From: Thermoanaerobaculia bacterium
Lineage (GTDB): Bacteria > Acidobacteriota > Thermoanaerobaculia > UBA5066
Direction of reading: 5' to 3'
DNA length: 64,000 nt
Assembly (NCBI GenBank): GCA_036504335.1
Contig: DASXVJ010000029.1
Coordinates: 26,885-90,884 of the forward strand
Made by a program: the position numbers and the translations under genes. Shown one piece after another: positions 14,543 through 35,173 of this stretch. How positions within the stretch are numbered: position 1 is the stretch's first letter; every line of letters begins with the position of its first letter. The notes below the pieces were generated by a model, which made no database searches, was not told where the DNA came from, and saw nothing but the letters and a program-made list of their open reading frames with translations.

Positions 14543-14616
14543 AGAGAGACAAAGCGAAAGAGTTTCTTAGAAAGTATTGCGGGCCGGGGGATTCTTCTCC
14601 CGGCCCTTTTTCATTG
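14531..14616 (+). terminator. Repeat-family copy F4 + rho-independent terminator (GGGCCGGGGG-ATTCTTCT-CCCGGCCC-TTTTTCATT)
   Basis: Starts at the MFS stop codon: polypurine tract, core GAGTTTCTTAGAAAGT, then GC hairpin and T-tract. Confidence 0.7.
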
Positions 14617-14657: not shown

Positions 14658-15860
14658 GTGCCCGCTGAAAGCACGATCCGCCCGTCAGCCTTTCTAAGGA
14701 ATTTTCTTCGGTCCGAAGCTCTCTCTGGAATCCTCCTCCTCGCCGCCGCGGTCGCCGCGATCGCCCTCGCGAACTCGCCTCTCAAGGACGCGTACGCCCA
14801 CGCCACGCACCTTCCCCTCCGGTTCGGCGACGGTTCGTGGCGCGTGGACACGACGCTCCTCCATGCGACCAACGACGGGTTGATGGCCGTCTTCTTCCTC
14901 GTCGTCGGGCTCGAGATCAAGCGAGAGTTCCTGACGGGAGAGCTTGCCGGGAAGGGCGCCGCGATTCTCCCCGTGGCGGCCGCGTGCGGGGGAGCGGCCG
15001 TCCCCGCGGCGATCTACGCCGCGTTCAACGCCGGGACGCCCGCGGCGCACGGATGGGGCATCCCGATGGCGACGGACATCGCGTTCGCCGTGGGCGTCCT
15101 CGCGCTCCTCGGCCGGCACGTGGCGCCCGTGTTCAAGGTCTTCCTCACCGCCGTGGCGGTCGTCGACGACCTGATCGCGGTTCTCGTGATCGCCTTCTTC
15201 TACACGTCGGGGCTGAACCTCGGCGCGCTCGCCGTCGTGGCCGGCGCGTGCGCGGTCCTCTACGCGTTCAACCGGGCGGGCGTCCAGTCCCTCGCCCCGT
15301 ACCTCCTCGTCGGAGCCGTCCTCTGGGCCGCCATGGCGCGGTCCGGCGTCCACGCGACGATCGCGGGCGTCCTGCTCGGCATGAGCGTTCCCGCGACGGG
15401 CGCGCAGACATCGCCCCTCCGCCGGCTGGAGCACGCTCTCCACCCCTGGGTCGCGTGGGGGATCATGCCGGTCTTCGCCCTCGCGAACGCGGGCGTGACG
15501 GTGCCGGCGGGGCAGGTTGGAGCGATGCTCACGTCGCCGATCGCGCTCGGAATCGTCGTCGGGCTCTTCTTTGGAAAGCAGGTCGGGATTTTCGGGACGA
15601 CGTTCCTGCTGGCACGGCTCGGCGTCGGCACGGTTCCCGCGGACGCCCGGGGACGGCGTTCTCTCTGGGGCGTCGCGCTGCTCGGCGGGATCGGGTTCAC
15701 GATGTCGCTCTTCGTGAGCGGACTCGCGTTCCATGGAGAAGCGATGACGGACGTTTCCAAGGCCGCGATCCTCGCGGGCTCGTTGATGTCGGGTCTCGCC
15801 GGCGCGGCCGTTCTCGCGAGCGTCCCCGAGCCGGTGGCGGGAGACGCGGACGCCGGTTAG
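14658..15860 (+). CDS. nhaA: Na+/H+ antiporter NhaA
   Basis: FLRSEALSGILLLAAAVAAIALANSP N-terminus, GIPMATDIAFAVGVLALLG (the NhaA DxAF motif region) and VDDLIAV. The N-terminal TM1 codons (14676-14740) are a reverse-orientation repeat patch. Confidence 0.8.
   Translation: MPAESTIRPSAFLRNFLRSEALSGILLLAAAVAAIALANSPLKDAYAHATHLPLRFGDGSWRVDTTLLHATNDGLMAVFFLVVGLEIKREFLTGELAGKGAAILPVAAACGGAAVPAAIYAAFNAGTPAAHGWGIPMATDIAFAVGVLALLGRHVAPVFKVFLTAVAVVDDLIAVLVIAFFYTSGLNLGALAVVAGACAVLYAFNRAGVQSLAPYLLVGAVLWAAMARSGVHATIAGVLLGMSVPATGAQTSPLRRLEHALHPWVAWGIMPVFALANAGVTVPAGQVGAMLTSPIALGIVVGLFFGKQVGIFGTTFLLARLGVGTVPADARGRRSLWGVALLGGIGFTMSLFVSGLAFHGEAMTDVSKAAILAGSLMSGLAGAAVLASVPEPVAGDADAG
14676..14740 (-). repeat. 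Repeat-family copy R9, in-place patch in nhaA TM1
   Basis: revcomp GAGGAGGAGGATTCCAGAGAGAGCTTCGGACCGAAGAAAATTCCTTAGAAAGGCTGACGGGCGG. Confidence 0.55.
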
Positions 15861-15875
15861 ACTCCTCGGTCGAGG

Positions 15876-16280
15876 ATGGCCATCTTCGGGAAAAGCTCGC
15901 AAGGCCCGGCACCCGCGGGCCGCGTCGAGCCGGCGCGCGGGCCGTCCGTCATCGGGCCCCACACTCGAGTCCAGGGCGAGCTCCTCGGAGACGAGGACGT
16001 CCTGGTGGAAGGCCGCCTGGAGGGGCGCGTCCTCCTCGCGCGCGAGTTCCGCGTCGCCGCGGGCGCCGTCGTCGTCGCCGACGTGCACGCGGGCACCGTC
16101 GTGATCGCCGGTGAGGTCGTCGGCGACGTGAGCGCGACCGAGCGCGTCGAGATCCTGCCCTCCGGGTCCCTGGAAGGAAACATCCGCGCCCCCAAGGTCG
16201 CCGTCGGCGACGGGGCGCGATTCAAGGGGAGCGTCGACATGAGCGCCGGGCCCCCTCCCGGCGGCGACGCCCCCAGCTGA
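15876..16280 (+). CDS. Bactofilin family cytoskeletal protein
   Basis: Periodic beta-helix repeat [28 protein letters not shown]...[46 protein letters not shown], typical of DUF583/bactofilin. Confidence 0.65.
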
Positions 16281-16299
16281 CCGAAAGGAACCTCCGCAC

Positions 16300-17826
16300 A
16301 TGGCACCGTCCGCACCCGTTCACGGCAATTGGATCGCCGGCAAGCACGTTCCCGCCCGCTCGGGCCGAACCTTCGAGAACCGCAACCCCGCAGACGTGAC
16401 CGACCTGATCGGCCGCTTCGCGGATTCCGACGAGCGCGACGTCAGGGACGCCGTCGATACGGCCGCGGAGGCCTACAGGAGCTGGCGCCTCGTCCCCGGC
16501 CCGCAGCGCGGCGAGATCCTCTATCGGCTCGGCGAGATCCTCCGCGACCGCAAGGAACAGTATTCGCGCGACATGACCCGCGAGATGGGCAAGGTCCTGA
16601 AGGAAGCCCGAGGCGACGTGCAGGAGGCCATCGACATGGCATTCCTCATGGGAGGCGAGGGCCGCCGCCTGCACGGACAGACGACGCCCTCGGAGCTCCC
16701 GAACAAGTTCGCGATGTCCGTGCGGGCCCCGATCGGCGTCTGCGCGTTCATCACGCCCTGGAACTTTCCGATGGCGATCCCGGCATGGAAGTCCACGGCG
16801 GCCCTCGTGTGCGGGAACACGGTCGTCGTGAAGCCCGCCACGGACACGCCGCTCTCCGTCGTGAACTTCGCGAAGGCGCTCGAGGACGCGGGCCTCCCGC
16901 CCGGCGTCTTCAACGTCGTGACGGGCTCGGGGTCGAAGGTCGGGAACCCGCTCCTCAAGGACCCGCGCGTGAAGGTCGTCTCGTTCACGGGCTCGACGTC
17001 CGTCGGGCGCTCGATCAACGAGGCCTGCGCGCCGTCGTTCAAGCACGTCCACCTCGAGATGGGCGGCAAGAACCCGATCATCGTGATGGACGACGCGAAC
17101 CTCGAGCTCGCCGTCGACGGGGCGATCTGGGGCGCGTTCGGGACGAGCGGGCAGCGCTGCACCGCGTCCTCGCGCCTCCTCGTGCACCGCAAAGTCGTCA
17201 GGAAGTTCACGGCGATGCTCGGCGAGCGCGCCGCCGCCCTGAGGGTCGGCAACGGGCTCGACGAGAAGAACGAGATGGGCCCGGCGATCAACGAGAGCCA
17301 GCTCGACACGGTCCTCGACTACATTTCGATCGGCAAGGACGAGGGCGCGAAGCTCGTCTCCGGCGGCAAGCGCCTCACGGGCAAGGGCCACGACAAGGGC
17401 TGGTTCGTCTCGCCCACGGTGTTCGGCGACGGCGACCGGAAGATGCGGATCGCGCGCGAGGAGATCTTCGGCGCCGTCACGGTCGTCGTGCCGATCTCGT
17501 CGCTCGAGGAGGCGATCGACATCTCCAACGAGTCGGAATACGGCCTCTCGTCGGCGATCTTCACCCAGGACATCAACAAGGCGTTCGTCGCGATGCGCGA
17601 CCTGGAGGCCGGCATCTTCTACGTGAACCTGCCGACGATCGGCGCCGAGACGCACCTGCCGTTCGGCGGGACGAAGCAGACCGGCAACGGCCACCGCGAG
17701 GCGGGACTCGCCGCACTGGACGTCTTCAGCGAGTGGAAATCGATCTACGTCGACTACTCCGGGACGATCCAGAAGGCGCAGATCGACGTGCCGGCCGGCG
17801 AGACGTCCGCGAAGAAGAAGAGATAA
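16300..17826 (+). CDS. NAD(P)-dependent aldehyde dehydrogenase
   Basis: [19 protein letters not shown] and GQRCTAS (catalytic Cys) motifs. 508 aa. Confidence 0.85.
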
Positions 17827-17898
17827 GAGAAGAAAAGACTTCTTAGAAGGTCAAGAGGGCGGCCGGTCGCGCGGAATCGCGGCCGGCCGTTTTCATTC
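17808..17898 (+). terminator. Repeat-family copy F5 + bidirectional terminator hairpin (CGGCCGGTCGCG-CGGAAT-CGCGGCCGGCCG) + TTTTCATT
   Basis: Lies between the convergent ALDH (stop 17826) and aminotransferase (stop 17893). Core GACTTCTTAGAAGGTCAAGAGGG. Confidence 0.65.
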
Positions 17899-19116
17899 GA
17901 TGCCTCGTGCCTTTCGATAGGCCGGAAGCGCCTGCGCGAGGATCGCGACCGCCTCGCGGAGATCGTCCTCCTTGAGGACGTACGCGATCCGCACCTCGTC
18001 CTTTCCGAGGCCCTCGGTCACGTAGAACCCGCTCGCCGGCGCGACCATGACGGTCTTTCCGTCCCTCTGGAAGTCCGTGAGGAGCCAGGCCGCGAAGTCG
18101 TCGCTGTCTTTGATCGGGAGGCGCGCGACGAGGTAGAAGGCGCCCTCAGGTTTCCTGAGGAAGACGCCCGGAATGCCCGACAGGCCTGCGAAGAGCGTGT
18201 CGCGACGCGTCTGGTACTCGGTGACGACGCCCTTGTAGTACTCCGGGCCGAGCGCGGCGGCCGCCGGCGCGATGTACTGCGCGAGGCCGGGCGGGGAGAG
18301 CCGCCCCTGCGCCATCCGGTTCGTGGCGGCGGCAAGCTCCTCATTGCGCGTGACGAGAGCGCCGAGGCGGATCCCGCAGGCGGAGAACCGTTTCGACAGC
18401 GAGTCGACGACCACGACCTCGTGCTCGAAGCCGGCCAGCGAGAGCGCGCTCTCGGACACGCGGCCGTCGTACAGGAACTCGCGGTAGACCTCGTCCGAGA
18501 CGAAGAAGAGGCCGTGGTCGCGGCAGAACTCCGCCACGAGGCGGATCTCCTCTTTCGTGTAGACCGTCCCGGTCGGGTTGTTCGGGTTGCAGAGGAGAAC
18601 GATCCGGGTCTTCGGCGTGAGCGCCTTTTCCCATTCGGCGCGGCCGGGAAGGTGAAAGCCGTCCTCGCCGCGCGTCACGATGGGCTTGAGCGTGAGGCCC
18701 GCCATCGCCGCGAACGAGCGGTAGTTCGTGTAGAGCGGCTCGACGGTGAGGATCTCGCCGCCGGGATCCGAGCACGCCATGAACGCGAAGAGCAGGGCCT
18801 CGCTGCCTCCGGTCGTCGCGAGGATCTGGGACGGCTCGAGCGAGACGCCCAGCCGTCCGTAGTACGTCTTCAGGAAGTCGAGGTACTCGGGCGTGCCGTT
18901 CGACGGCGAGTACGCGTAGACCTTGTCCTTCAGCTCGGCGAGGCGGCGCCGCATCGGCTCGGGCGTCTCGAGGTCCGGCTGCCCGATGTTCAGGTGCAGG
19001 ACCTTCACGCCGCGGGCCCGGGCGGCGTTCGCGAGCGGCATCAGCTTGCGGATGGGGGATGCGGGCATGGCGAGGCCGCGTGCGGAGACGTGCGCGGCCG
19101 TGCGTGTCGTGCTCAT
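17893..19116 (-). CDS. Pyridoxal-phosphate-dependent aminotransferase class I/II (AspC/AlaA-like)
   Basis: LNIGQPD, NPNNPTG and SLSKRFSACGIRLG (PLP-Lys) motifs. Confidence 0.8.
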   Translation of the reverse strand: MSTTRTAAHVSARGLAMPASPIRKLMPLANAARARGVKVLHLNIGQPDLETPEPMRRRLAELKDKVYAYSPSNGTPEYLDFLKTYYGRLGVSLEPSQILATTGGSEALLFAFMACSDPGGEILTVEPLYTNYRSFAAMAGLTLKPIVTRGEDGFHLPGRAEWEKALTPKTRIVLLCNPNNPTGTVYTKEEIRLVAEFCRDHGLFFVSDEVYREFLYDGRVSESALSLAGFEHEVVVVDSLSKRFSACGIRLGALVTRNEELAAATNRMAQGRLSPPGLAQYIAPAAAALGPEYYKGVVTEYQTRRDTLFAGLSGIPGVFLRKPEGAFYLVARLPIKDSDDFAAWLLTDFQRDGKTVMVAPASGFYVTEGLGKDEVRIAYVLKEDDLREAVAILAQALPAYRKARGIE

Positions 19117-19120
19117 GCGC

Positions 19121-20128
19121 TCAGCGTAGCAAAGAGCCTGGATCGGAGATTCCGGCAGCCGAAAGCAGGCCGACCATGTCCGGCGGGACCGGCGCCGTGA
19201 ACGTCATGGGCTCGCCCGAGACGGGGTGCCGGATCCCGAGCCGCCACGCATGCAGCGCCTGCCGCGGGAACGCCTTGCAGGCCTCTTGGAGCGCCTCGTC
19301 CTTCAGGCCCTTCCAGCGCGGCGAGCCGTAGACGGCGTCGCCCACGATCGGCAGGTTCAGCGCCTTGAGGTGGACGCGGATCTGGTGCGTGCGGCCCGTG
19401 ACGAGGCGGCATTTCAGGAGAGAGAGGCCGGAGAGGGGACCGGAAGATTCGGAGAGGATTTCATAGAAGGTTGAAGAAGCGCGGCCTTCGCTCTTCGACG
19501 TCGTCATGCGCTTTCGGTCACGTGGGTCGCGCAAGATTCCGAGATCGATCTTTCCCTTGGTGACGGCGGGTCGCCCATAGACGACCGCCAGATATTCCTT
19601 TTCCAGGAATCTCTCTTTCATGGCTTTCCCAAGGACCGACATCGCACGCTCCGTCTTCGCAATGATCAGCACCCCCGACGTGTCCTTGTCGAGACGGTGG
19701 ACGAGGCCGGGGCGGTCCGCGGGGCCCGCCCAGTCCTTCGAGCGGTGAAGGAGCGCGTTCACGAGCGTCCCCTGGCGGTGGCCGACGGCGGGATGGACGA
19801 CGAGACCGGCGGGCTTGTTCAGGACGAGGATTGCGGAGTCTTCGAAGATGATGGAGAGGGGAATGTCCTCGGCGATGAGGGACGCCCTGGGCGGGGGAGG
19901 AGGCGGGAGGACGATTTCGATGACGTCCCCCTTCTTCACTTTCTCAGACGTCTTCTTCGGTCTCCGCCCCGCGATCGAAACCCATCCTCCTTCGATCCAC
20001 TCCTGGATCTTCGTGCGCGAAGCCTCGGGCAGGTCCGTCAGATGGCGCAGAAGCACGTGGTCGAGCCGCTCGCCGACATCGCCGCGGTCCGCGCGGATGG
20101 CCCGGGCCGGCCGCGGCGCGTCGCTCAC
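19121..20128 (-). CDS. rluD: 23S rRNA pseudouridine synthase, RluD/RluA family (S4 domain + catalytic)
   Basis: S4 domain RLDHVLL...KVKKGDVIEI, catalytic HRLDKDTSGVLIIAKT and GRTHQIRVH. GTG start 20128; the track ORF to 20986 is over-extended. Contains repeat patch F6 (19442-19496). Confidence 0.8.
   Translation of the reverse strand: MSDAPRPARAIRADRGDVGERLDHVLLRHLTDLPEASRTKIQEWIEGGWVSIAGRRPKKTSEKVKKGDVIEIVLPPPPPPRASLIAEDIPLSIIFEDSAILVLNKPAGLVVHPAVGHRQGTLVNALLHRSKDWAGPADRPGLVHRLDKDTSGVLIIAKTERAMSVLGKAMKERFLEKEYLAVVYGRPAVTKGKIDLGILRDPRDRKRMTTSKSEGRASSTFYEILSESSGPLSGLSLLKCRLVTGRTHQIRVHLKALNLPIVGDAVYGSPRWKGLKDEALQEACKAFPRQALHAWRLGIRHPVSGEPMTFTAPVPPDMVGLLSAAGISDPGSLLR
19442..19496 (+). repeat. 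Repeat-family copy F6, in-place patch in rluD
   Basis: GGAAGATTCGGAGAGGATTTCATAGAAGGTTGAAGAAGCGCGG. Confidence 0.55.
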
Positions 20129-20907
20129 GCCGGCTTCGGGGCGGGCGGAATCCGGCGGCGCAGCGCGTAGATCGCGAGCCCGGCGAGGACGCCGCAGAGC
20201 GCGATGAATTGCGAGGTCGACATCACGCCCAGGACCTCGCCGCGGGGATCGCCCCGGAAGAACTCGATCGTGCCGCGCAGGAGCGCGTACCCGAAGACGT
20301 ACCGGGCGAACGTCTCGCCCGAGAACGCTCGCCGCTCGAAGCGGACGAGAAGCACGCAGAGGAGGAGCGTGCCGAGGATCTCGTAGACCTGTGTCGGGTG
20401 GAGGGGGATTCCGAGCGGGACGCCGACGTTCTCGTGGGCGACGGGGCTCGTGAACGTGACGGCCCACGGGAGGGAGCATTCCCGGCCCCAGCAGCAGCCC
20501 GCAAGGAAGCAACCGACGCGGCCGAACGCCTGCCCGAGGGCGACCGACGGCGCCGCGGCGTCCGCAAACATCCAGAACGAGATCCTCCGGCGCCGAAGCA
20601 GGATCGCGGTCGCGAGAACCGCGCCGATGAGGCCGCCGTAGAAGACGCCGCCGGCGCGCGCGAGCGACGCGAAGTCGCTCCACGAACGGACGTAGGACGG
20701 CCACTCGACGATCACGAGGAGGAGCTTCGCGCCGACGAGACCCGACAGCAGCAGCCAGACGCCGATGTCCGACGCCGTGTCGGCTTCGATGCCGAACGAC
20801 GGGGCCCGACGGCGCAGGAGCCACAGCCCGGCGACGAAGGCCACGGCCATCATGAAACCGTAGCTCGGGAGCGCGAACGAGCCGATTCGGAAGAGCTCGG
20901 GATGCAT
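20125..20907 (-). CDS. lgt: Prolipoprotein diacylglyceryl transferase
   Basis: MHPELFRIGSFALPSYG... and GRVGCFLAGCCWG, the Lgt signature. ATG 20907. Confidence 0.8.
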   Translation of the reverse strand: MHPELFRIGSFALPSYGFMMAVAFVAGLWLLRRRAPSFGIEADTASDIGVWLLLSGLVGAKLLLVIVEWPSYVRSWSDFASLARAGGVFYGGLIGAVLATAILLRRRRISFWMFADAAAPSVALGQAFGRVGCFLAGCCWGRECSLPWAVTFTSPVAHENVGVPLGIPLHPTQVYEILGTLLLCVLLVRFERRAFSGETFARYVFGYALLRGTIEFFRGDPRGEVLGVMSTSQFIALCGVLAGLAIYALRRRIPPAPKPA

Positions 20908-20912
20908 TCGGG

Positions 20913-21413: not shown

Positions 21414-21422
21414 CGGGAGATT

Positions 21423-24395
21423 CTACCCGCCGACGACGGCGCGGCAGCGGGCGCAGACGCCGTCCTCGCCGGGCTCGACGTCCTTCTTGACCTGCCAGCA
21501 GCGCGGGCACTTGGCGCCTTCGGCGGCGCGCGCGAGCACGGACTCGGCGTCTCCCTCCCGCACGACCGACGGCGTCCCGAACACGTCGGCCAGCCTTTCT
21601 TCTGAAAGGTGAAGAAGGGCGAGCGCGCGGTCGACGTTCTCGCCGCGCCCGATCGCGGCGACGGCCTGGGACGCGGAGCCGACCTTGTTTTCGCGCCTCA
21701 GGGGCTCGAGGGCCTGCAGGAACGCCGCTCGAAGCGCGAGGACCACGCCCCACGCCTCTCTTTCATTCGAAGGAATCTCCGAAGTCTTCAGATCCCCCCA
21801 GCTCTTCAGGAACAAGGCGGACGGGTCCTTCGCGTTCCCGGGCAGCGATTCGAATATCTCCTCGGCCGTGAACGGACAGATGGGGGAGAGGGCGACCGCG
21901 ATCGTCTCCACGAGTTTCCAGGCGGCCGTCTGCGCCGATCGGCGCACGGGGTCGTTCGGCGCGAGGACGTAGAAGGCGTCCTTGCGCACGTCACACCAGA
22001 AAGCCGAGAGGTCGACCGTGACGAAATCCAGGAGCCGCCGGGCGACGCCGTGGAATTCGTGACGGCCGTAGGCCTCTCGCGCCTCGCTCGCGAAGCGGCC
22101 CGCGGCGTCGAGGACCCAACGCTCGAGCGGCTCGAGTCGCGCGTCCGGAACGGCGTCCTTCGCCGGGTCGAAGTCGAAGAGGTTCGAGAGCAGGAACCGC
22201 GCCGTGTTCCGGATCTTGCGGTACGCCTCGGACGTGCGCTGGAGGATCTCCTTCGAGAGCGGGTCGTCGTTCGTGTAGTCGAGCGACGCGACCCAGAGGC
22301 GGATGACGTCGGCGCCTTCGGTCTTGAGCAGGTCCTGCGGCTCGATCGTGTTCCCGAGCGACTTCGACATCTTCCGGCCGTCGCCCGCGACGACGAAGCC
22401 GTGCGTGAGCACCGTGTCGAAGGGCGCGCGGTTGGTCAGCGCGACCGACGTGAGGAGCGACGACTGGAACCAGCCGCGGTGCTGGTCGTGACCTTCGAGG
22501 TACATCACGGGGACCGGCGGCTGCGTCGTGTACGGGTCCGCGAGGCCGTAGTCGCCCGAGCGGAGGACGGCTGCGTGCGAGACGCCCGAGTCGAACCAGA
22601 CGTCGAGGATGTCCTTCAGCTTCTCGAAGTTCGTGCCCCCGCAAAGAGAACAGGAGGCCGAAGACGAAGAGGAAGAGGAAGAGGAAGAGGAAGATTTGCT
22701 TAGAAAGTAAGACGGGGGGAACGCGTCGTCGTACCACGCATTGGCGCCGTGCTGCCGGAAGGCCCCTCTTACCCTTTCAAAGAAATCTTCTCTTTCTCTC
22801 TTCTCGTTCTCCGTTCCGCCGCCCTCGACTCTGGGGAAATGGCTGACGATCCCCTTCTCTTTGCAGTCCACGCAGCGCAGGAACGTGATCGGCGAGCCCC
22901 AACGCCGCTGGCGGGAGATCGTCCACTCGAGGCGGTTGTCGACCATCGCGCCGATGCGGTTCTCGCTGTAGGAGGGGATCCACTCCACGCGCCCCCGGAT
23001 CTCGCCCATCGCGCGCTCGCGCAGCGCCCCGAGGTCGATGAACCACTGGTGCGTCGCCCGGAAGACGACCGGGTTCTTGCAGCGCCAGCAGTGGGGGTAG
23101 GAGTGCGGGGAGGACTTCTGCGAAAGGAGGATGGAGGCGCCGGCGCGCCCGTCCTTCAGGGCCTCGAGGACGGCGACGTTCGCGTCGTCGGCGGGCGTCT
23201 TCGGCGTGACGACGCGTTTTCCCCTGAGGAATTCCGGGGCGTTGACGTCGTAGTAGCCGCCCTCGTCCACGGGGCAGAGCGCCGGGTCGTCCACCTTGAA
23301 GCCGGCGCGGCGCACCACCTCGTAGTCGTCGCGGCCGTGGCCGGGCGCGGTGTGGACGAGGCCCGTGCCGTCCGTCGTCGAGACGTGCTCGCCGAGGAGA
23401 AATCCGAAGTTATCGAATGGGTCGGACGCAAAGGGCCGGGCGTAGCGCAGGGCCGGCAAGGCCCCGGCGATCACTTCGCCGCTTTTCTTCGAATGAGGAA
23501 GAGGGTGTGCGTCGCGCCAGCCGAGCGCAGCGGTCACCTGCGGGACGAGCGACTCGGCGACGAGGTAGGCGGCGCCCGGCTCTGATTCCCTCTTCAGAAG
23601 TACGTATTCGATTTTCGGACCCAGCGCGATGGCGCGGTTCGCGGGCAGGGTCCAGGGGGTCGTCGTCCAGATGACGGCGTAGAGTTGCCGCACGTCGCCC
23701 GACTGAGCGAGAGCGCCCCACACACCGTTCAAAGAATCTTCTCTTAGGGGCATCGCCAGGTAGATCGACCAGTCCGTCTTGTCCTCGTACTCGATCTCCG
23801 CTTCCGCGAGCGCCGTCCGGTCGTGGACGCACCAGAGAACGGCCTTGAAGCCGAACGACACGAGGCCTTTCTCGACGAACCGCCCGAAGGCCCGGGCGAT
23901 CTCGGACTGGTAGGAGAAGTCCATCGTCCGGTACGGCTTCATCCACGCGCCGAGGACGCCGAGGCGCATGAAGTCGGTCCGCTGGACGTCGATCCACTTT
24001 TCGGCGGAGGCGCGGCAGGCGTCGCGGATCGCGACGTCGGACATCCCGCGCTTCTTCGGGCCGAGCTCCTTGTCCACCTTGAGCTCGATCGGGAGGCCGT
24101 GGCAGTCCCAGCCCGGCACGTACGGAGCGTCGAAGCCGTCGAGCGTGCGGGACCGCACGACGAGATCCTTGAGGATCTTGTTCATCGCCGTGCCCATGTG
24201 AATCCGGCCGTTGGCGTAGGGCGGACCGTCGTGGAGGATGTACCCGGGAGCGCCCTTCCGCGCGGCGCGGATGCGGCCGTAGAGGTCGTCCTCCTGCCAG
24301 CGGGCGAGGCGCGGAGGCTCGCGCCTCGGGAGATCCCCTCTCATCGGGAAGTCCGTTTTCGGGAGCAGAAGGGTGGATTTCCAGTCGCGGCCCAT
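21423..24395 (-). CDS. ileS: Isoleucine--tRNA ligase
   Basis: [23 protein letters not shown] (HIGH), [25 protein letters not shown] and a C-terminal CPRCW zinc motif. Contains repeat copies at 21593-21622, 22641-22719 (13-Ser run), 22764-22817 and 23725-23750. Confidence 0.9.
21593..21622 (+). repeat. Repeat-family copy F7, in-place patch in the ileS C-terminus
   Basis: CCTTTCTTCTGAAAGGTGAAGAAGGGCGAG. Confidence 0.45.
22641..22719 (+). repeat. Repeat-family copy F8 with (GAAGAG)5 microsatellite, in-frame insertion in ileS
   Basis: GAAGACGAAGAGGAAGAGGAAGAGGAAGAGGAAGATTTGCTTAGAAAGTAAGACGGGGGG. Gives [20 protein letters not shown]. Confidence 0.75.
22764..22817 (-). repeat. Repeat-family copy R4 in ileS (second member of a composite)
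   Basis: revcomp GAGAAGAGAGAAAGAGAAGATTTCTTTGAAAGGGTAAGAGGGG. Confidence 0.7.
23725..23750 (-). repeat. Repeat-family copy R5 (short) in ileS
   Basis: revcomp CCCCTAAGAGAAGATTCTTTGAACGG. Confidence 0.4.
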
Positions 24396-24474
24396 TCGAG
24401 CCGCGGAGGTTACATGATTCAGATGGATCAGGTGGCGCTCCGGAGCGCTGTTCGTCCCTTACACTCCGCCGCGC

Positions 24475-25419
24475 ATGACGTCGCTCAAGACCGGTGTCGT
24501 CGGCTGCGGCTACCTCGGCCGGCACCACGCGCGCATCCTGTCCACGCTCGAGGGTTCGAGTCCGGCCGGCTTCGTCGAGACGGACGACGCCGCAGCGGCG
24601 GCGATCGAGGCCGCTCACGGGGCCGCGGGGATGGTCCGCCGGCGGTCGATCCGGGATCTCCTGGACGAGGGGGCCACGGCCGTCGTCGTCGCGTCACCCA
24701 CCGTCACGCACGCCGCCGTCGCCGAGGAGCTCCTCCTCGGAGGCGCGGACGTGATGGTCGAGAAGCCGATCACCGCGACGCTCGCCGAGGCGGACCGCCT
24801 CGTCGCGATCGCCCGGGAGAAGGGCCGCGTCCTGCAGGTCGGGCACATCGAGCGCTTCAACCCGGCCGTCGCGGCCATCCGGCCGCTCGTCACCAACGTG
24901 AAGTTCATCGAGGCGCACCGCCTCGGGGTGTTCGTGCCGCGCGCGCTGGACGTGGACGTCGTCCTCGACCTTCTCGTCCACGACCTCGACATCGCGCTGG
25001 ACCTCGTGGGACGGCCGGTCGTCGAGATCCGCGCCGTCGGCGTCCCGATCCTCTCGAACAAGATCGACATCGCCTCCGTGCGGCTGTCGTTCGAGGGCGG
25101 GTGCGTCGCGAACCTGACGGCCTCGCGCGTTTCGCAGGAGAAGACGCGGAAGTTCCGGTTCTTCCAGCCGGACTGGTACTTCTCGATCGACACCCAGAAC
25201 CGCGACGTGACGGCGTTCCGCCTGGACCGGATGACGGGCCCGCCGCGCATCGTGCCGTGGCCGGTCGCCGTCGAGCCGCAGGACGCGCTGACCGCCGAGG
25301 ACGCCGCGTTCCTGAAGGCGTGCCGCGCGCGCAGCGAGCCCGAGGTCACCGGCGAGGCCGGGCGCGCGGCGCTGAAGCTCGCGCTCGACATCCTCGAAGA
25401 GATGGGCCGGAACCGTTGA
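24475..25419 (+). CDS. Gfo/Idh/MocA family NAD-binding oxidoreductase
   Basis: VVGCGYLGRHHA Rossmann N-terminus and EKPIT motif. Confidence 0.7.
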   Translation: MTSLKTGVVGCGYLGRHHARILSTLEGSSPAGFVETDDAAAAAIEAAHGAAGMVRRRSIRDLLDEGATAVVVASPTVTHAAVAEELLLGGADVMVEKPITATLAEADRLVAIAREKGRVLQVGHIERFNPAVAAIRPLVTNVKFIEAHRLGVFVPRALDVDVVLDLLVHDLDIALDLVGRPVVEIRAVGVPILSNKIDIASVRLSFEGGCVANLTASRVSQEKTRKFRFFQPDWYFSIDTQNRDVTAFRLDRMTGPPRIVPWPVAVEPQDALTAEDAAFLKACRARSEPEVTGEAGRAALKLALDILEEMGRNR

Positions 25420-25470
25420 AGATGAGGAAAGAGAAGAAGAAGATTTCTTCGAGTGGAGGAGAGAGAGGGA
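25419..25470 (+). repeat. Repeat-family copy F9 at the mtnP 5' end
   Basis: GAAGATGAGGAAAGAGAAGAAGAAGATTTCTTCGAGTGGAGGAGAGAGAGGG. Confidence 0.65.
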
Positions 25471-26327
25471 CGCCGCGCATCGGCCTCATCGGGGGCTCCG
25501 GTCTCTACAACCTGCCCGGGTTGAAGATCACCTCCGAAGTCGCGCTTTCGACTCCCTTCGGAAAGCCGTCCGACTCTTACTTTCTGGGAAATCTCTCTTC
25601 TGTCCCTGTGGCATTCCTCGCGAGGCACGGACGCCACCACGCGCTCCTGCCCACTGAGGTCAACTACCGCGCCAACATCTGGGGACTGAAATCCCTCGGC
25701 TGCTCATGGGTGATCTCCGCTTCCGCCTGCGGCTCGATGAAGGAGGCCTACAGGCCGACCGACATCGTCCTGCCGGACCAGTTCATCGATCTCACGAAGA
25801 GCCGCGCCTCGACGTTCTTCGGCGAAGGCATGGTCGGGCATGTTTCGTTCTCGCACCCCGTCTCGACGGCGCTCCTCGACGCCCTCGAGGCGGCGGGGAA
25901 GGCCGAGAAGGCCGTCGTCCACCGCGGCGGGACGTACGTCTGCATGGAAGGGCCGCAGTTCTCCACGAAGGCCGAGTCGCTCCTCTACCGGTCCTGGGGC
26001 GTCGACGTCATCGGCATGACGAACGCGACGGAGGCGAAGCTCTGCCGCGAGGCCGGGATCGCCTACGCGTCGGCCTGTCTCGTGACGGACTACGACTGCT
26101 GGCACGAGGAGGAGGGCCCGGTCAGCGTCGAGGCCGTCCTCGCCGTCCTGAAAGCGAACGCGGCGACCGCCAACCGCGTCCTCGCGAACGCCGTGAGCCG
26201 GCTCGACCCGGCGCGGCCGAGCGACTGCGCCGACGCCCTCGCCTTTGCAATCCTCACGCACCCGACGCGCGTTCCCGCCCGGACCCGGAAGCGGCTCGCG
26301 CTCCTCACGCAGAAAGGACGTCCATGA
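25422..26327 (+). CDS. mtnP: S-methyl-5'-thioadenosine phosphorylase (PNP/MTAP family)
   Basis: IGLIGGSGLY, VISASACGS and GMTNATEAKLCREAGIAYASACLVTDYDCW. The N-terminal 16 aa (MRKEKKKISSSGGERG) are encoded by repeat copy F9. Confidence 0.75.
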   Translation: MRKEKKKISSSGGERGTPRIGLIGGSGLYNLPGLKITSEVALSTPFGKPSDSYFLGNLSSVPVAFLARHGRHHALLPTEVNYRANIWGLKSLGCSWVISASACGSMKEAYRPTDIVLPDQFIDLTKSRASTFFGEGMVGHVSFSHPVSTALLDALEAAGKAEKAVVHRGGTYVCMEGPQFSTKAESLLYRSWGVDVIGMTNATEAKLCREAGIAYASACLVTDYDCWHEEEGPVSVEAVLAVLKANAATANRVLANAVSRLDPARPSDCADALAFAILTHPTRVPARTRKRLALLTQKGRP

Positions 26328-27328: not shown

Positions 27329-27369
27329 GCTTCAAAGAAGCGGCGCGGCGGGTTACACTCCGCTTTCGC

Positions 27370-27855: not shown

Positions 27856-27873
27856 CGGGCCGCGGAGGGACGC

Positions 27874-29201: not shown

Positions 29202-29623
29202 CTTCCGGCGCGGGCGCCCCCGGCGCTCCGCTGTCGATCCTGGTCGTCCTCCCGTCGCCACCGCAGCGCCTCCTCGCCGTCGCCGCGGTGCGCGCGGCCC
29301 TGCAGCCGTGGGGACGAACGGTGGTGGCTGCCGAAGCCGGCTCGGCGTTCGAGGCGCTCTGCCTCGTGGCCCGCGGGCGGCCCGCCCTCGCGCTCGTCGC
29401 ACTGGACCTGCCGGTCCTTTCCGGCGACGAGCTCGTGGCCCTCCTGCGCGCTCACCCGGAGCACCGCGGTCTTCCGGTCGTCGCCGTGGCCCCGGGCTCG
29501 GACGCCGACGCCGTTGCGAGGTCCGCGGCGGCGGGCGTGGTCGCGCTGCTGCGCACGCCGTTCGATCCCGCTGCCGTCGCCGCCTCGCTGGCAGCCGCCG
29601 GTCTTGCCGGGAGCCAGCCGTGA
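29198..29623 (+). CDS. Single-domain response-regulator receiver (CheY-like)
   Basis: TTGA overlap. LSILVVLPSP...ALVALDLPVLSGDELV...VVAVAPG receiver fold with the phospho-Asp in ALDL. Confidence 0.55.
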   Translation: MTSGAGAPGAPLSILVVLPSPPQRLLAVAAVRAALQPWGRTVVAAEAGSAFEALCLVARGRPALALVALDLPVLSGDELVALLRAHPEHRGLPVVAVAPGSDADAVARSAAAGVVALLRTPFDPAAVAASLAAAGLAGSQP

Positions 29624-32600
29624 GCCGGCGCCCGTTCATCTCCGTCGTACAGGAGACCGCTTCTCCGAAGCCCGAAGTGCGCCTCCACGCGGCGGCGGTT
29701 CTCTCGGGCCTCGGCGGGACGGAGGCTGAAGAAGCGCTCGCGGGCCTGCTCTCGGATTCCGACCACCGCGTGCGCGCCCGCGCCGTGGAAGGCCTCGCAC
29801 ACGCGGGGCCGGCGGGCCGCGCGACCTGCACGGACATCCTGCTCGACCCGGCGTCGGGCGTCGCGGGACCTGCCGCGGCACGCGCGCTCGCGGCGCGGGG
29901 CGGCGCCGGGGGCGTTCTCCTCGAGGCGCTCTCGAGCCCGTCTCCGGTCGTCCGCCTCCGTGCGGCGCGGGAGCTTCCGCCGGGCGCCTCGGGTCCGGCC
30001 GTCGTCGCCGCCCTCGAGGCGGCCGTCCGCACCGAGACCGACGCCGACGTACGCGTGGAGCTCCTTCTCGCTCTTGGGCGCACGGGCCGCACCGAAGCCG
30101 TGCCCGTGCTCCTGCGCGCCCTCCGCGACGGCGGCACGTTCGACCGCGCCCACGCCGCGTGGGCTCTCGGCCTGCTGGGCGACCCCCGGGCTGCGGCCCG
30201 GCTCCTGCCGCTTCTCGACGAGCCGGGCGTCGGCGCCTGCGCGCTGGCGGCGCTCTCGCGTCTGCCGGCGCCCGAGGCGGCGGAGGAGCTGGCGCGCCGC
30301 GGTGCCCGGGACCCCGCCGCGGGCCCCGATCTTCTGGTCGCGTTGTCGACGTCCGTCTGCAGCGCCCCCGGGCCCGTCGCGCGGCGCGTGCGCGCACTCT
30401 GGCCCTCCGTGACGGACGCCGCGCAGGCCGCCCTTGCGGCTCCCGGTCTCCCGCGGGGCGCCGCCGGCGCGCTCGCGCGCCTCCTCGCGCGCCTCGACGC
30501 GGCGGGCGCGGCGGCGCTCGTCGTCCGACATGGTCCCTATCCGGACGGCTACGGTCCGCTGGCCGAGCTTCCGCCCGAGCGCCTCGTCGAGGCGGCGCGC
30601 ACGGCCCTCGTCGTGGACGACCCCGAGCCCGCCCTCGTCCTGCTCGTGCACGGCGGCGTGGCGGTCGACCCGGCGCGGCTTCTCGCCCATTCGCATCCGC
30701 GCGCGAAGACCGGTGCGCTGAACCGCCTCGTGCCCGGTTCGACCCCGCTCCCGGATCTCCTCGAGATTCTCGCGGACGACGATCCGGACACGGCGCTTGC
30801 TGCGGCCTGGGCGGTTTCGCGCGAAGCCTGGCGGGAGGACGGGGAGCGCGCGCGGGCGGCCGCGACGGCGCTGCACGATCGCGCGAGCGGTCACGACGGC
30901 CCCGGGCGGGCCGCCGCGCTCACGGCGCTGCGCGAGCAGCCGGGTCCCGCGGCCGACGGAGCGCTGCGCTCCGCGTTCGGGTCGTCAGATGCGGGGACCC
31001 GCGCCGCGGCCGCTGCGGCCTCCGCGTTCCGCTCCGACCTGACGGAGCGCGACGTCCTGCCCCTCCTCGAGGACGACGACCCCACGGTCCGCGCCGAGGC
31101 GCTCCGGACGCTGACCCGTCTCGCGGGCGACGGCCGGTCGGCGATCGACTCCCGGCGGATTCTCCGTTTCCTGAACGACGACGCACAGGTCGCCGCCGCC
31201 GCGGGGGCGCTCCTCGTCACGCTCGCAGGCGCCGAGCGGCCCCGGCTGGCCCGCGAGATGCTCGCGCAGCGGGGAGCCGTGCGGCGCGCCGCGCTCGAGA
31301 CGATCGGGGATCTTCGCGACGCCGCATCGGCCTCGGCCGTGGCGTTCGCGGTGCTTCACGAAGACGTGTCCACGGCCCGCGCCGTGCTCGAGGCGGCGGC
31401 GGCGGCGCCTCCTCCGATCGCCGCCGACGCGGTCGTGAGCGGGCTCGCGGACCGCCGGCCCGAGGTACGCATCGCGGCCGCCGCGGCGGCGGCCCGGGCG
31501 GGGGAGGACCTCGCGGCCGCTCTCGGGATCCCGCTGGCCGAGGCGCTGGACCGCGAGTCCGATCCCGAGGCGCGCGCCGCACTGCTGCGGGCCATCGCCG
31601 CTTCGGGGCGCGCGGACGCGATCGGCGCCGTCACGCGCGCGCTCGGCACGGAGGCCGAGCGGTCCGAGTCGCGCGCCGCCGCCGAGTCCCTGGCGCGCCG
31701 CTTTCCCGAGGCGGTCCGGGGAGCGTGGGGCGCGGCGCCGCCGCGGGCCGGCCGGGCGTGGGGCGCAGCGATCGAGGCCGCGCGCCGTCCCGGCGCACCG
31801 GCCTTTCCGGACGACGGGGCCGACGCCCTCCGCCTTCTTGCGGGGCTCGCGCGGATGCGCACGGGGCTCGACCTCGACACCGAGACGCTGCGGCCGCGGC
31901 TGGGGTTGCTCCTCGGGGCCGAGGCCTGGGCCGCGGGCTCCTTCCGGCAGCTCTGGCGCCGGATGCGCGACCTGCCCCCGTCCCACGCTCTTCTCGCGCG
32001 GCTCGTCGACTCTGTCGCCGACACCACGTCGCGGTTCTTCGGCGACCCCGCGGCGCTCGACGCCCTCGCCGGCGAGATCGCGCCGGAGCGACTCCTGGCC
32101 CTCGGGGCCGACGGCACGCTCGACGTCTGGTGCGTGGCATGCGGCACCGGCGAAGAGGCGTGGTCGGTGGCGATCCGGCTCGCCGAGCGCGGCTTCGGGC
32201 CGAATCGACGGTTCCGGATCCGGGGCACGGACCTCTCGCCGGCGGCGATCCGCCACGCGAAGGCGGGCGTGTACGGCCCTCACGCGCTGCGCGGCGTCGC
32301 CGAGGCGGTCCGGACGCGTCACTTCCAGCCGCTGTCGAACGGCCGCTACCGCGTGCGCGAGCCCCTCCGCGAAGCCGTCTACTTCGAGGCGCGCGCCCTC
32401 GCCGACGAGCCGCCGGGCGCCGGAAAGCACGACGTCATCATCTGCCACGGTCTTCTGGCACAGCTGCCGGCCGCGGCTCGGCCGGAGACCGTCGAGCGCC
32501 TCGGTGCGTGCCTGAAGCCGGGAGGCTACCTGCTGCTCGGGCGCGAGGACCACGCGTACGCCGCGTCCTCGCCGCTCGCGCCGGTCCTGCTCGGGAGCGA

Positions 32601-32652
32601 CCTCGCCTACCGGACGGCGGGCGCGGTCGTTTACACTCGCGCGCTCTCATGA
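29620..32652 (+). CDS. HEAT/PBS-lyase repeat protein fused to C-terminal CheR-type SAM-dependent methyltransferase domain
   Basis: GTGA overlap. ~18 HEAT-like repeats ([26 protein letters not shown], ...). C-terminus [21 protein letters not shown]...[12 protein letters not shown] matches the CheR MTase fold. Confidence 0.6.
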
Positions 32653-35123
32653 CGACTCCGTCCGTCCCCCCCTCACGCAGCGACGAAATCCGGCGCATCG
32701 AGACGAAGTGGCGCGAGCGATGGGAACGGGACCGCGCCGCGTTCGTCGACACGGGCAAGCCCGCAGGCGACGGCACGTACCTCCTCGTGATGCTGCCGTA
32801 CCCCTCGGGCGACCGGCTGCACGTCGGGCACGCCCGCACGTACTTCCTGACGGACGCGCTCCACCGCTACCTCCGGCAGCGCGGACGGACGATCTTCTGC
32901 CCGATGGGCTGGGACGCGTTCGGCCTGCCGGCCGAGAACTACGCGATCCAGAGGGGCGTCCACCCGCACACCTCGACGCTCGCGAACATTGCGGCGATGA
33001 AGGAGCAGTTCCGGGCGTGGGGCGTCCTCTACGACTGGACGAAGGAAGTCACCACCTGCGAGCCGGCCTACTACCGCTGGAACCAGTGGTTCTTCCTCAA
33101 GCTCCTCGAGAAGGGCCTCGCCGTGCGGCGGAAGTCCGCCGTGAACTGGTGCCCCTCGTGCGAGACGGTGCTCGCGAACGAGCAGGCCGAGGGCGGCGTG
33201 TGCGACCGCTGCGGGACGCCCGTCATCCAGCGCGAGCTCGAGCAGTGGTTCCTGAAGATCACGGACTACGCCGAGAGCCTTCTCGCCGGCCTCGACACGC
33301 TCGGGAAGTGGCCCGAGAAGGTCGTCACGATGCAGCGCAACTGGATCGGGAAGTCGGTCGGCGCCGACCTCGACTTCGCGATCCCCGCGCTCGGCGAGAG
33401 CGTGCGCGTCTTCACGACGCGCCCGGACACCGTCTACGGCGCGACCGCGCTCATCCTCGCGCCGGAGCACGCGCTCGTCCCGCGCCTGATCGCAAACCAT
33501 CCGGACGAGGCGGGGCTGCAGACGTGGGTCACGTCCGTCCGCGACCAGGAACGCATCGCGCGCGAGGCCGAGGGCGCCGAGAAGGACGGCCGGGACACGG
33601 GCGTCAAGGCGATCAACCCGTTCACCGGGCAGGAGATTCCGGTGTGGCTCGCGAACTTCGTCGTCGCGGACTACGGCACGGGCGCGCTCATGGCCGTCCC
33701 CGCGCACGACACGCGGGACTTCGAGTTCGCGAAAAAGTACGGGATTCCGATCGTGAAGGTCATCGAGGGTGGCGACCTTCCCTATACGGGCGAGGGCCCT
33801 CTCGTTGCCTCTGGCACCTTCTCAGAAAATTCCTCTTCCGCCGCCCGCGAACTGATTGCTGCGGAAGCCGCTTCGCGAAGGATCGGCGGTCCCAGGATCC
33901 GCTATCGCCTCCGGGACTGGCTCATTTCCCGCCAGCGCTACTGGGGGACTCCGATCCCCATGGTGAAGTGCCCGACGGACGGCTGGGTGCCGGTGCCGGA
34001 GAAGGACCTGCCGATCGTGCTTCCGCCCGACGCGCCGTTCACCGGCAAGGGCGGGAACCCGCTGGAGAAGGTCGCGGCCTTCGTGAACACCACCTGCCCG
34101 AAATGCGGCGGCCCGGCGCGCCGCGAGACGGACACGATGGACACCTTCGTGGACTCGTCCTGGTACTACATGAGGTACCTCGACCCCTCGAACGATCGCG
34201 CCCCGTTCGACCCGGCGCGCGCCGCCGAGTGGGCGCCCGTCGACCAGTACATCGGCGGAATCGAGCACGCGATCCTCCACCTTCTCTACGCGCGCTTCTT
34301 CACCCGCGTCATGAAGGACCTCGGCCTCGTCACGTTCGAGGAGCCGTTCTCCGCCCTGTTCAACCAGGGAATGATCACGCGCCAGTCCCCGACGGGGCGC
34401 GTCGAGAAGATGTCGAAGTCGCGCGGCAACGCCGTGTCCCTCGACCCGCTCATCGCGGAGAAGGGCGCCGACGCCGTGCGCGCGTTCGTCCTCTTCCTCG
34501 GGCCGCCCGAGAAGGACGCCGAGTGGAGCGACGAGGGCATCAGCGGGCCGGAGCGCTTCCTCGGGCGCGTCCGGACGGCCGTGGAGCGCTTTGTCGCGAC
34601 GGGCGCCGACGTGCGCGGCGAGCCCGCCGCGGCGGACACGCCGGCGGCGCGCGCCCGGCACATGGCCGTCAAGAAGCTCACGGAAGATTTCGACGCGTTC
34701 TCGTTCCACACGGCCGTCGCGCACCTCATGGAGTTCGCGACGCACGCCGCCGGCCTCGTCGGCGACGCGAAGGCCGACAGGGGAGAGACCGCCGCGACGC
34801 TCCGCGCGCTCGTCGCGCTCCTCCACCCGATCGCCCCGCACCTCTCCGAGGAGCTGAACGAGAAGCTCGGCGGCACGGCGAGCCTCCTCGTCTCCGGCTG
34901 GCCCGCGTTCGACCCGAAGCTCGCGGTAGAGGAGATCGCCTCCGTCGCCGTGCAGGTCTCGGGAAAGGTCCGCAGCGAGGTCAAGCTCCAAAGAGGATCT
35001 TCTGAGAAAGAGGCGCGGGCGGCAGCGGAGGCGGATCCTGCGGTGGCCCGGTGGCTCGTGGACAAGCAGGTCGTGAAAGTGATCTGGGTCCAGGACCGCC
35101 TGCTCAACCTGGTCGTGAAGTGA
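32649..35123 (+). CDS. leuS: Leucine--tRNA ligase
   Basis: ATGA overlap. [16 protein letters not shown] (HIGH), [39 protein letters not shown] and C-terminal LLNLVV. Repeat patches at 33816-33843 and 34989-35021. Confidence 0.9.
33816..33843 (-). repeat. Repeat-family copy R6, in-place patch in leuS
   Basis: revcomp GGCGGAAGAGGAATTTTCTGAGAAGGTG. Confidence 0.5.
34989..35021 (+). repeat. Repeat-family copy F11, in-place patch in the leuS C-terminus
   Basis: AAAGAGGATCTTCTGAGAAAGAGGCGCGGGCGG. Confidence 0.45.
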
Positions 35124-35173
35124 GAGACGATAGAAAAGACCGAAGAGAAGATTCTTCGAGTGGTCGCGGGCGA
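35123..35173 (+). repeat. Repeat-family copy F10 at the leuS stop
   Basis: GAGAGACGATAGAAAAGACCGAAGAGAAGATTCTTCGAGTGGTCGCGGGCG. Confidence 0.55.

Follow-up and report, generated by a model that had tools for sequence, protein, structure and literature searches.

An inverted-pair repeat within housekeeping genes of Thermoanaerobaculia-like bacteria, with signs of an origin in situ

Several kinds of short interspersed sequences known from bacteria invite comparison with a repeat that we describe here from a 64,000-nucleotide stretch of a Thermoanaerobaculia bacterium (GenBank assembly GCA_036504335.1, contig DASXVJ010000029.1, positions 26,885 to 90,884 of the forward strand; hereafter the window). 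Uptake signal sequences (USS) of Pasteurellaceae and DNA uptake sequences (DUS) of Neisseriaceae number hundreds to thousands of copies and occur as inverted pairs at terminators. Both are dense, lie on both strands, mostly within genes and in several reading frames, arise in place at tolerant residues, and are conserved among related species (PMC2817400). Repetitive extragenic palindromic (REP) sequences, bacterial interspersed mosaic elements (BIME), REPIN doublets and the Correia elements of Neisseria are interspersed inverted doublets that can form long hairpins, often beside terminators or 3' ends. REP sequences stabilise mRNA, and RNase III cleaves Correia transcripts. Elements of the REP and Correia types affect mRNA stability and processing (see also PMC3184786, PMC3733652). 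Rickettsia palindromic elements (RPE) and intragenic miniature inverted-repeat transposable elements (MITE; ERIC, BOX) are short hairpin-capable repeats that sit in frame in unrelated housekeeping genes, where they are translated into added or changed stretches of peptide and tolerated at the protein surface or in linkers (PMC10969869). Finally, template switching, or quasi-palindrome mutation, creates clustered substitutions in place that render a segment complementary to a nearby one (PMC8794818).

The repeat in the window belongs with these interspersed hairpin repeats (REP, MITE, RPE, USS), but its in-situ, intragenic mode is unusual. It shares with RPE the in-frame position in unrelated housekeeping genes; however, an RPE is a cassette of ~100-150 bp inserted whole, whereas here two arms flank native coding sequence, many of them replacing residues one for one. 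The interior of a pair is not part of the repeat, and a series of outgroups points to an origin in situ. In density and placement the repeat is like USS and DUS, but its long motif is degenerate, containing indels and a tract of low complexity, and its inverted pairing within genes looks obligate. REP, BIME, REPIN and Correia elements resemble it as inverted doublets but are extragenic, doublet and spacer together forming the repeated unit, whereas ~85% of the arms described here lie in open reading frames (ORFs) and enclose native spacers. REPINs depend on a RAYT transposase, and neither a RAYT nor any other transposase was found among the genes of the window. Template switching likewise acts in place, but under it each arm should match its own partner specifically and no family consensus should be shared, and neither holds here. 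No description of such repeats in this bacterial group was found in the literature searched.

Low-GC patches in several genes of the window are arms of an old, clade-specific, interspersed inverted-pair repeat, which usually leaves protein length unchanged. On balance we lean towards the view that it arose in situ by substitution and is held by selection on nucleotides, with a hairpin-type role. One dispersed family was defined by low-GC 40-mers, k-mer enrichment and alignment of copies. A copy is ~45-60 nt long and consists, in order, of a GA-rich tract of ~20-30 nt, a core, GAAGATTTCTTWGAAAGG, which contains the palindrome TTTC-N3-GAAA, and a tail, GTRAGAGGGG often following the core. The string TTCTTTGAA occurs 7 times in the window against 0.09 occurrences expected (k-mer count). 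About 17 copies are clear by nhmmer, and ~27 arms in all are spread over the 64 kb (~0.4 per kb), about equally on the two strands; ~23 of them (~85%) are within ORFs, which is about the coding density. With an iterated nhmmer model we counted 48 strong copies across nine genomes of the clade and none in two outgroups, and the repeat occupies orthologous sites in clade members. The core is degenerate even among strong copies and includes indels, TTTCTTTGAAAG, TTTGCTTAGAAAG and TTCTTCGAGTGG being among its variants. All intragenic arms are in frame and free of stop codons. Purine arms also lie directly 3' of stop codons, 5' of terminator hairpins and in intergenic DNA, as judged from the sequence and a terminator scan.

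Neighbouring arms 20-260 nt apart were arranged '+-' in 28 cases, '++' in three, '--' in one and '-+' in none; these counts include orthologous pairs and are hence non-independent, the window alone giving 6 versus 0. The near-uniform arrangement identifies the unit as an inverted pair in which the purine-rich arm leads, whichever strand is read. Between paired arms lie 40-200 nt of native, locus-specific sequence. The spacers FRxHGADAWYDD of ileS and YTGEGxLIASG of leuS align with outgroups that are without the repeat. An earlier reading of the window from its letters (the sequence-only reading) had pointed to patches of low GC at third codon positions (GC3) in nhaA, rluD, leuS and ileS, but it overlooked this key anatomy of inverted pairs around native sequence.

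The window is 70% GC overall (62-80% in 1-kb bins), with GC3 of ~0.91 in the gene set and an agreeing frame plot. Searches with IleRS placed it in the Acidobacteriota, near metagenome-assembled genomes labelled Thermoanaerobaculia, with IleRS relatives whose identity falls off gradually from 91% to 58%. For the clade comparison we used syntenic DNA of eight relatives, which with the window makes nine genomes. Their IleRS identities to the window are 91% (L081), 88% (L166), 86% (L082), 83% (L083), 79% (L167), 76% (L168), 74% (L084) and 74% (L169); L085 (66%) and L001 (61%) served as outgroups. In L168, leuS, rluD and other genes are broken by frameshifts, probably assembly or sequencing errors, and that genome was therefore used for nucleotide motif comparisons only. 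An IleS search of species-representative genome contigs, a source of outgroups, had its closest match at 61% identity and revealed the repeat in 0 of 80 loci. Among metagenome contigs the best IleS matches were 40-46% identical, apart from one partial locus at 73%, and generic peptide patterns dominated.

The main pair of ileS is the second of three. In gene sense, its pyrimidine arm (22657..22716, plus strand; nhmmer E = 6e-8) has the core over native [SD]FL, and its purine arm (22759..22820, minus strand; E = 2e-7) has the core over native FFE[KR]V. The spacer is native, retains high GC3 and aligns with the outgroups. In most of the nine genomes the first arm retains GATTTCTTYGAAAGGGTAAGAG and the second a TACTTTCTAAG-type sequence. 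Along the series from L001 through L085 to the clade, change proceeds stepwise and in place at the same codons. Alignment of 63 clade IleS proteins showed that, compared with the outgroups, pair 2 nevertheless adds 6 aa by one insertion and 11 aa of poly-Ser by another. The poly-Ser tract (22657-22700) ranges from 0 to ~20 residues among the 63 relatives, a variation that slippage within the TCT/TCC stretch of this pyrimidine arm could explain.

Two weaker pairs in ileS span conserved codons 216-224/295-303 (pair 1) and 870-878/926-932 (pair 3). The pyrimidine arm of pair 1, AHPLPHSKK (23478..23522, plus strand), is a low-GC3 patch with conserved AT-ending third positions (AT3) at codons 297-303 and has orthologous matches in L083, L167 and L169; its purine arm, LREDSLNG (23716..23757, minus strand; nhmmer E 0.23-10), has conserved AT3 at codons 217-220 and matches in L081, L083 and L167. 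In pair 3 the pyrimidine arm, LLHLSEE (21590..21625, plus strand), is again a low-GC3 patch, with conserved AT3 at codons 926-932 and orthologous weak matches in L166, L083, L167 and L168. Its purine arm, TSEIPSNER (21752..21790, minus strand; nhmmer E ~1), has conserved AT3 at codons 870-878 and matches in L168 and L169. Arm types are given in gene sense for both pairs.

In nhaA the N-terminal patch SAFLRNFLRSEALSGI (14679..14735, minus strand; a pyrimidine arm in gene sense) is in place, 10 of its 15 codons being AT-ending. It falls at positions 2-12 of the Pfam model with no insertion, the protein having 372 residues for 373 model positions. Most relatives have FLQEFLRTEAASG at this site, in codons mostly ending in G or C. 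The core TTT CTA AGA GAA TTT CTT CGG TCC GAA is common to the window and L166 only, and the window has further changes of its own. Its partner, 106 nt upstream, is a purine-rich arm directly 3' of the stop codon of an MFS transporter gene (14538..14587, plus strand; nhmmer E 6e-5 to 6e-3). A terminator hairpin at 14581-14606 and TTTTT come after this arm, which has orthologous copies in L081 and L166. In the minimum free energy (MFE) fold, ~16 contiguous base pairs, three of them G-U, join the nhaA arm to 14557-14575. Judged from these orthologous sequences, assembly was sequential, the nhaA arm having been gained beside an older partner that is present in the window, L081 and L166.

The first patch of leuS has lost its partner. 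Its core, TFSENSSS (33815..33838, minus strand; nhmmer E 5.9-15), is an orphan pyrimidine arm equal in length to FTGMSSAAA of the outgroup L085. Relatives have a clearer pyrimidine arm there, PFSAKSSSSA, and L083, L167, L084 and L168 give weak orthologous matches. The purine partner is a VIEEEKREDFLGREEGKG-type insertion of 13-16 aa in 7 of the 7 relatives covering the region (L081, L166, L083, L167, L168, L084 and L169); it is deleted in the window (33745-33790, compared with L081 605-644 and the six others). At the leuS C-terminus, QRGSSEKE (34987..35020, plus strand; nhmmer E 1-21) is a weak purine-type copy in place. Here RGSSEKE is equal in length to RGTAEAE of L085 (ARGTAEAE with the preceding residue), its codons are conserved in L083 and L084, and L084 has an orthologous match.

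Immediately downstream, lptE (35120-35734, plus strand) apparently begins with a GTG that shares bases with the leuS stop codon (GTGA), and a charged extension of 34 aa precedes its lipoprotein signal peptide. A repeat pair encodes the extension and part of the signal peptide. The purine arm (35116..35175, plus strand; nhmmer E 0.03) runs from the leuS stop and lptE start into the extension, and the pyrimidine arm (35206..35266, minus strand; E 1e-5 to 9e-5) encodes the signal peptide (SSFKEFSLFFLVLFVFGC). The 34-aa block is common to the window and L084 and is absent in L083 and L085.

The arms of rluD are weak. In gene sense the pyrimidine arm, TFYEILSESSG (19425..19484, plus strand), lies in place over a native conserved motif; its AT-ending codons are conserved in all relatives including L085, and L166, L167, L168 and L085 give orthologous weak matches. 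The purine arm, AMKERFLEKEY (19594..19644, minus strand; nhmmer E = 19), is 129 nt upstream and has a conserved AT3 cluster at codons 170-178. Both are thus conserved AT3 clusters over native family motifs, found even in L085.

The GC3 dips named by the sequence-only reading were recovered in all four genes by a scan for patches with at least 5 of 8 codons AT-ending, set against a gene-wide AT3 of 0.091: at 14683-14727 in nhaA, 19460-19480 in rluD, 33849-33878 and 34989-35009 in leuS, and 22674-22712 and 22767-22799 in ileS. The peptides quoted for them were correct. In total, 34 low-GC3 patches were found versus ~5.6 windows expected, and nearly all internal ones resemble the motif. The claim that the patches match the repeat held strongly for ileS (nhmmer E 1e-6 to 1e-8), but the other matches are weak on sequence alone: leave-out models gave E-values of 0.25 for nhaA, 4.6 for rluD and 5.9 and 14 for leuS, which by sequence alone is within chance. 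An nhmmer control on reversed sequence was uninformative, reversed GA-rich tracts still scoring. Comparison with the eight related genomes upgrades these weak matches, assigning each patch to a conserved arm at an orthologous site. Protein length is unchanged, as had been proposed, in nhaA, rluD and both leuS patches but not strictly in ileS. As a general rule, length-neutrality was an over-generalisation, several arms being small insertions.

That the nucleotides of the arms are themselves constrained is indicated by codon usage. In seven genes, AT3 was 0.46 within arms and 0.08 outside. Of the AT-ending codons of the window, 58 of 99 in arms were shared by at least 70% of clade relatives versus 33 of 262 outside (odds ratio 9.8, P = 7e-18), a test that is partly circular for some weak arms for the reason given below; in the arm-free control gene aldh, 1 of 27 was shared. 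Rare ileS codons such as gaa gat ttc ttt gaa agg gta aga have been retained by every or almost every one of the nine genomes against a GC3 background of ~0.92. Moreover, the motif is read in three frames. The GAT of the purine arm begins at codon position 1 in four arms, at position 3 in four and at position 2 in two, and pyrimidine arms likewise use all three frames. Together with the intergenic copies, this argues for a constraint on DNA or RNA rather than on peptide. Our data thus support the conclusion that the patches are conserved by selection acting on nucleotides, and the suggestion of the sequence-only reading that a DNA or RNA motif is strongly selected at many loci is borne out by the rare-codon conservation, the three frames and the intergenic copies.

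At most loci the arms of a pair come together in MFE folds, namely those of ileS (all five genomes folded), MFS-nhaA, OsmC-DUF1579, leuS-lptE and pabB, and of PNP in L082 and lptE in L084. The ileS stem is kept in 9 of 9 genomes, mostly through invariance. One-sided changes in it lean to G-U over A-C, ~17 versus 9 cells in our own, non-independent tally. Complementarity between partner arms was no higher than between non-partners (mean -33.7 versus -34.7 kcal/mol, permutation P = 0.65). Arms are held near the family consensus, not to each other, which suggests a sequence-specific trans-acting factor that would read the duplex or the palindromic core. According to Rfam, RNase P is alone above the gathering threshold in the window, and nothing meaningful appeared at E<=1 in 14400-25700. 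A sub-threshold miRNA-precursor match over the ileS pair was set aside, as it reflects hairpin shape only.

Our preferred account, in-situ origin with selection on nucleotides, would run as follows. Arms would have been written into existing sequence by substitutions at motif-like sites, with no cassette insertion, where sites were pre-adapted, such as TTC TTC GAG AAG GT for FFEKV or TTC CTC for FL. GAA/GAG or TCT/TCC codons would also have expanded over short stretches, as by slippage, and blocks would occasionally have been gained or lost (the 34-aa block of lptE, the N-terminal extension of PNP, the leuS purine arm); purifying selection on nucleotides would then maintain the arms. Proteins would tolerate them because the purine arm yields an E/K/R/D-rich and the pyrimidine arm an S/L/F-rich peptide, placed in variable loops, linkers, termini and signal peptides. 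The two arms could then base-pair, giving a long stem with imperfections either in the transcript or in DNA that is extruded or single-stranded; the likeliest form is an extended hairpin of RNA or single-stranded DNA. The parallel with REP, ERIC and Correia elements suggests that such hairpins may punctuate RNA, stabilising 3' ends beside terminators and serving processing or insulation at gene junctions and inside long mRNAs.

Several observations weigh against this account. Four of the patches of the sequence-only reading are individually non-significant as repeat matches, and conserved AT3 clusters played a part in recognising some of the weak arms, hence the partial circularity noted above; strong arms were identified independently. 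Since several arms are genuine insertions, part of the family may be of insertional origin. Covariation in the ileS stem is minimal, any double change occurring in 5 of 44 pairs. Sense and antisense folds are equally stable, so that RNA-level and DNA-level function are inseparable here. Because partners are not better matched than non-partners, structure could be a by-product of two consensus-matching sites; moreover, arms are unpaired in the MFE folds of rluD, uvrC and GFO-PNP. Finally, RNA-level punctuation, although the likeliest role, is proposed by analogy.

A bolder proposal, which we regard as possible though rather doubtful, is that the repeat is an undescribed genome-wide element of Thermoanaerobaculia-like Acidobacteriota, its sequence-specific pair motif written in situ into native coding and non-coding DNA without insertion of a cassette and maintained over divergence at the genus or family level, either by molecular drive or by a trans-acting reader dedicated to it. 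Candidates would be a double-stranded RNA or hairpin-processing code that punctuates mRNAs, including those of essential aminoacyl-tRNA synthetase genes, or an uptake-like self-marking with the pair as the unit.

It is less probable, indeed unlikely, that the repeat is a selfish element of the RPE or MITE type, with arms or palindromic units inserted in frame and the in-place cases being old insertions blurred by deletions. Arms do add length (6 + 11 aa in ileS, 13-16 aa for the leuS purine arm of relatives, 34 aa in lptE and ~15 aa in PNP), whole blocks are polymorphic for presence or absence, the strict outer/inner polarity recalls terminal inverted repeats, and RPE are known in frame within unrelated housekeeping genes (PMC10969869). 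However, several arms swap native residues one for one (both leuS patches, nhaA, rluD and an alpha/beta hydrolase gene), and the spacers are native, conserved coding sequence, so that the pair is not a cassette. Change along the outgroup series is gradual, copies are old, orthologous and locus-specific in their variants, and the window is without a transposase. By-eye inspection, the only kind made, found no evident target-site duplications at the indel boundaries of leuS, lptE and PNP.

A motif favoured by DNA-uptake or self-recognition machinery, accumulating in situ through mutation and biased recombination wherever proteins tolerate it, is an improbable alternative. In its favour, the arms occur at ~0.4 per kb on both strands, ~85% of them in ORFs and with every frame used. 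Like USS and DUS in coding regions (PMC2817400), they lie at poorly conserved residues, arose in place by substitution and are orthologously conserved. Some pairs also flank terminators. In contrast to uptake sequences, the core is degenerate, with indels and no near-invariant 9-12-mer, and the expansion of the GA/TC tract is foreign to USS. Uptake would also leave the strict inverted pairing within genes unexplained. No competence genes were found among the genes of the window.

We give similarly low credence to the idea that the weak patches are conserved rare-codon or protein-constrained clusters resembling the motif by chance. The patches concerned are those of rluD and the leuS C-terminus, some of leuS 33849-33960 and perhaps that of nhaA, which would then be a 5' region of low structure. 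Their leave-out hidden Markov model E-values are 4-15, and the window holds 9 weak matches versus ~7 expected at E<=30. Even L085, a genome devoid of strong copies, conserves the rluD codons, and the native family motif TxYxIL forces codons of the TAT/GAA/ATC type. Yet weak matches recur at orthologous positions in several genomes, and weak arms keep the purine-first order at 40-210 nt from a partner. The first leuS patch is orthologous to a clearer arm whose partner is present in 7 of 7 relatives, and the motif-like character of nearly all internal low-GC3 patches also speaks against chance.

Least probable of the rivals is templated patch conversion, whether from another copy of the repeat (the gene conversion that the sequence-only reading had offered beside selection) or from the nearby partner arm (template switching, quasi-palindrome correction). 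Substitutions in nhaA do cluster, with 4 lineage-specific amino-acid changes in 14 codons, the gene maximum, but this clustering is non-significant once corrected for windows, and the arm took two or more steps to form, first a core that L166 also has and then the changes seen only in the window. Arms of ileS and of a metallo-beta-lactamase-fold gene are 93% identical over 43 nt, but mostly in low-complexity (GAAGAG)n. Template switching is known to make hairpins in place (PMC8794818). Nevertheless, locus-specific variants are inherited orthologously and kept across genomes, so that there is no concerted evolution and gene conversion is unsupported; the equal complementarity of partners and non-partners (P = 0.65) leads us to reject partner-templated conversion, and the stepwise ileS series also speaks against gene conversion. 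Promoter, sigma-54, CodY-like, parS-like and Shine-Dalgarno readings of the core (resemblance only partial, at positions inconsistent relative to start codons) were rejected, as were intragenic invertons (conserved IleRS sequence would be destroyed on inversion), translational bypass elements (the arms keep the frame and align with native residues) and diversity-generating retroelements (too many targets and no adenine-specific pattern).

Under in-situ origin and nucleotide selection, essential conserved genes of a high-GC bacterium (ileS, leuS, rluD, uvrC) would bear nucleotide constraints unrelated to their protein products and strong enough to fix rare codons and alter amino acids. An interspersed repeat spreading by recoding instead of insertion would make it harder to tell mobile repeats such as REP, MITE and RPE from motifs under selection or drive such as USS and DUS. 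Should the pairs be read as hairpins in RNA, they would add a layer of post-transcriptional punctuation throughout the lineage, in an uncultured group at the phylum level. In practice, such patches distort analyses of codon usage, horizontal transfer and dN/dS, and may mislead gene-start calls, as at lptE and PNP.

Further arms lie elsewhere in the window. At the junction of the GFO and PNP (MTAP-like) genes, a purine arm (25406..25466, plus strand; nhmmer E ~1e-5) is read as an N-terminal extension of PNP of ~15 aa, and a pyrimidine arm within PNP, SYFLGNLSS (25571..25613, minus strand; E 1.3-14), is in place in a low-GC3 patch with conserved AT3 at codons 53-60. In L082 (7738-7912) the N-terminal extension of PNP is ~55 aa long and contains both arms of a strong pair around a spacer of very high GC (fold of -91 kcal/mol); the other relatives are without this extension. 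A single purine arm (17807..17862, plus strand; E 1e-5 to 4e-4) covers the aldehyde dehydrogenase stop codon and is followed by a GC-rich hairpin; orthologous copies occur in L081, L082 and L166.

Three more pairs have arms that meet in MFE folds. One, in the metallo-beta-lactamase-fold gene (908-1741, minus strand), lies at 1340..1529 on the minus strand (nhmmer) and encodes EKISLKVRGK among other residues; the Pfam domain spans residues 27-234 against model positions 3-200, so that the net insertion is at most 10 aa. Another (4243..4443, plus strand; E 1e-6 to 4e-4) runs from the 3' end of the OsmC gene to the signal peptide (ILTFKAILLLSLPLFLC) of a DUF1579 protein, both assigned by Pfam. 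The third (49540..49795, plus strand; E 8e-5 and 6e-3) is in the N-terminal region of a chorismate-binding enzyme gene, whose Pfam domain begins at residue 114. In two secreted proteins or lipoproteins the pyrimidine arm makes up the hydrophobic core of the signal peptide (4388-4438, ILTFKAILLLSLPLFLC; 35213-35266, FSLFFLVLFVFGC).

Single arms were found in the alpha/beta hydrolase gene (783..845, minus strand; pyrimidine in gene sense; nhmmer E 3e-5 to 4e-3), with no length change (Pfam 15-205 against model 4-192, or 191 residues for 189 positions), and in the inter-domain linker of LigD, whose gene is on the minus strand (5854..5910, plus strand; E 0.002-0.02; Pfam domains at residues 638-744 and 868-1120). 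In uvrC, a low-GC3 patch at a Pfam domain boundary, GDFFDGGN (55900..55935, plus strand; E = 12), is a weak copy of purine type. Searching viral contigs with the 18-mer core gave 4 matches, about the chance number, and thus no link to phages.

Housekeeping genes of the window follow in the order acs, MFS transporter, nhaA, bactofilin, aldehyde dehydrogenase, aminotransferase, rluD, lgt, lspA and ileS, and then GFO oxidoreductase, MTAP-like PNP, pfkB, ribH, nusB, leuS, lptE, rpsT, tol-pal genes, uvrC and RNase P RNA. The last is a full-length match to the bacterial class A RNA (62823-63220, plus strand; 268 bits). Two long ORFs overlap on opposite strands, 5003-8425 (minus) and 5936-9304 (plus). 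The former is LigD, with phosphoesterase and primase-polymerase domains, whereas the latter has a Pfam match (DUF4388, ~8765-9073) confined to its last ~180 codons, so that most of it is a high-GC shadow frame. At 29200-32650 (plus strand), a response regulator gene and a gene for a CheR-HEAT protein of ~1010 aa reach 78-80% GC, with GC at codon positions 1 and 3 near 0.85-0.9; repeat arms are absent from this region, and both genes are missing at this position in L083-L085, L167 and L169.

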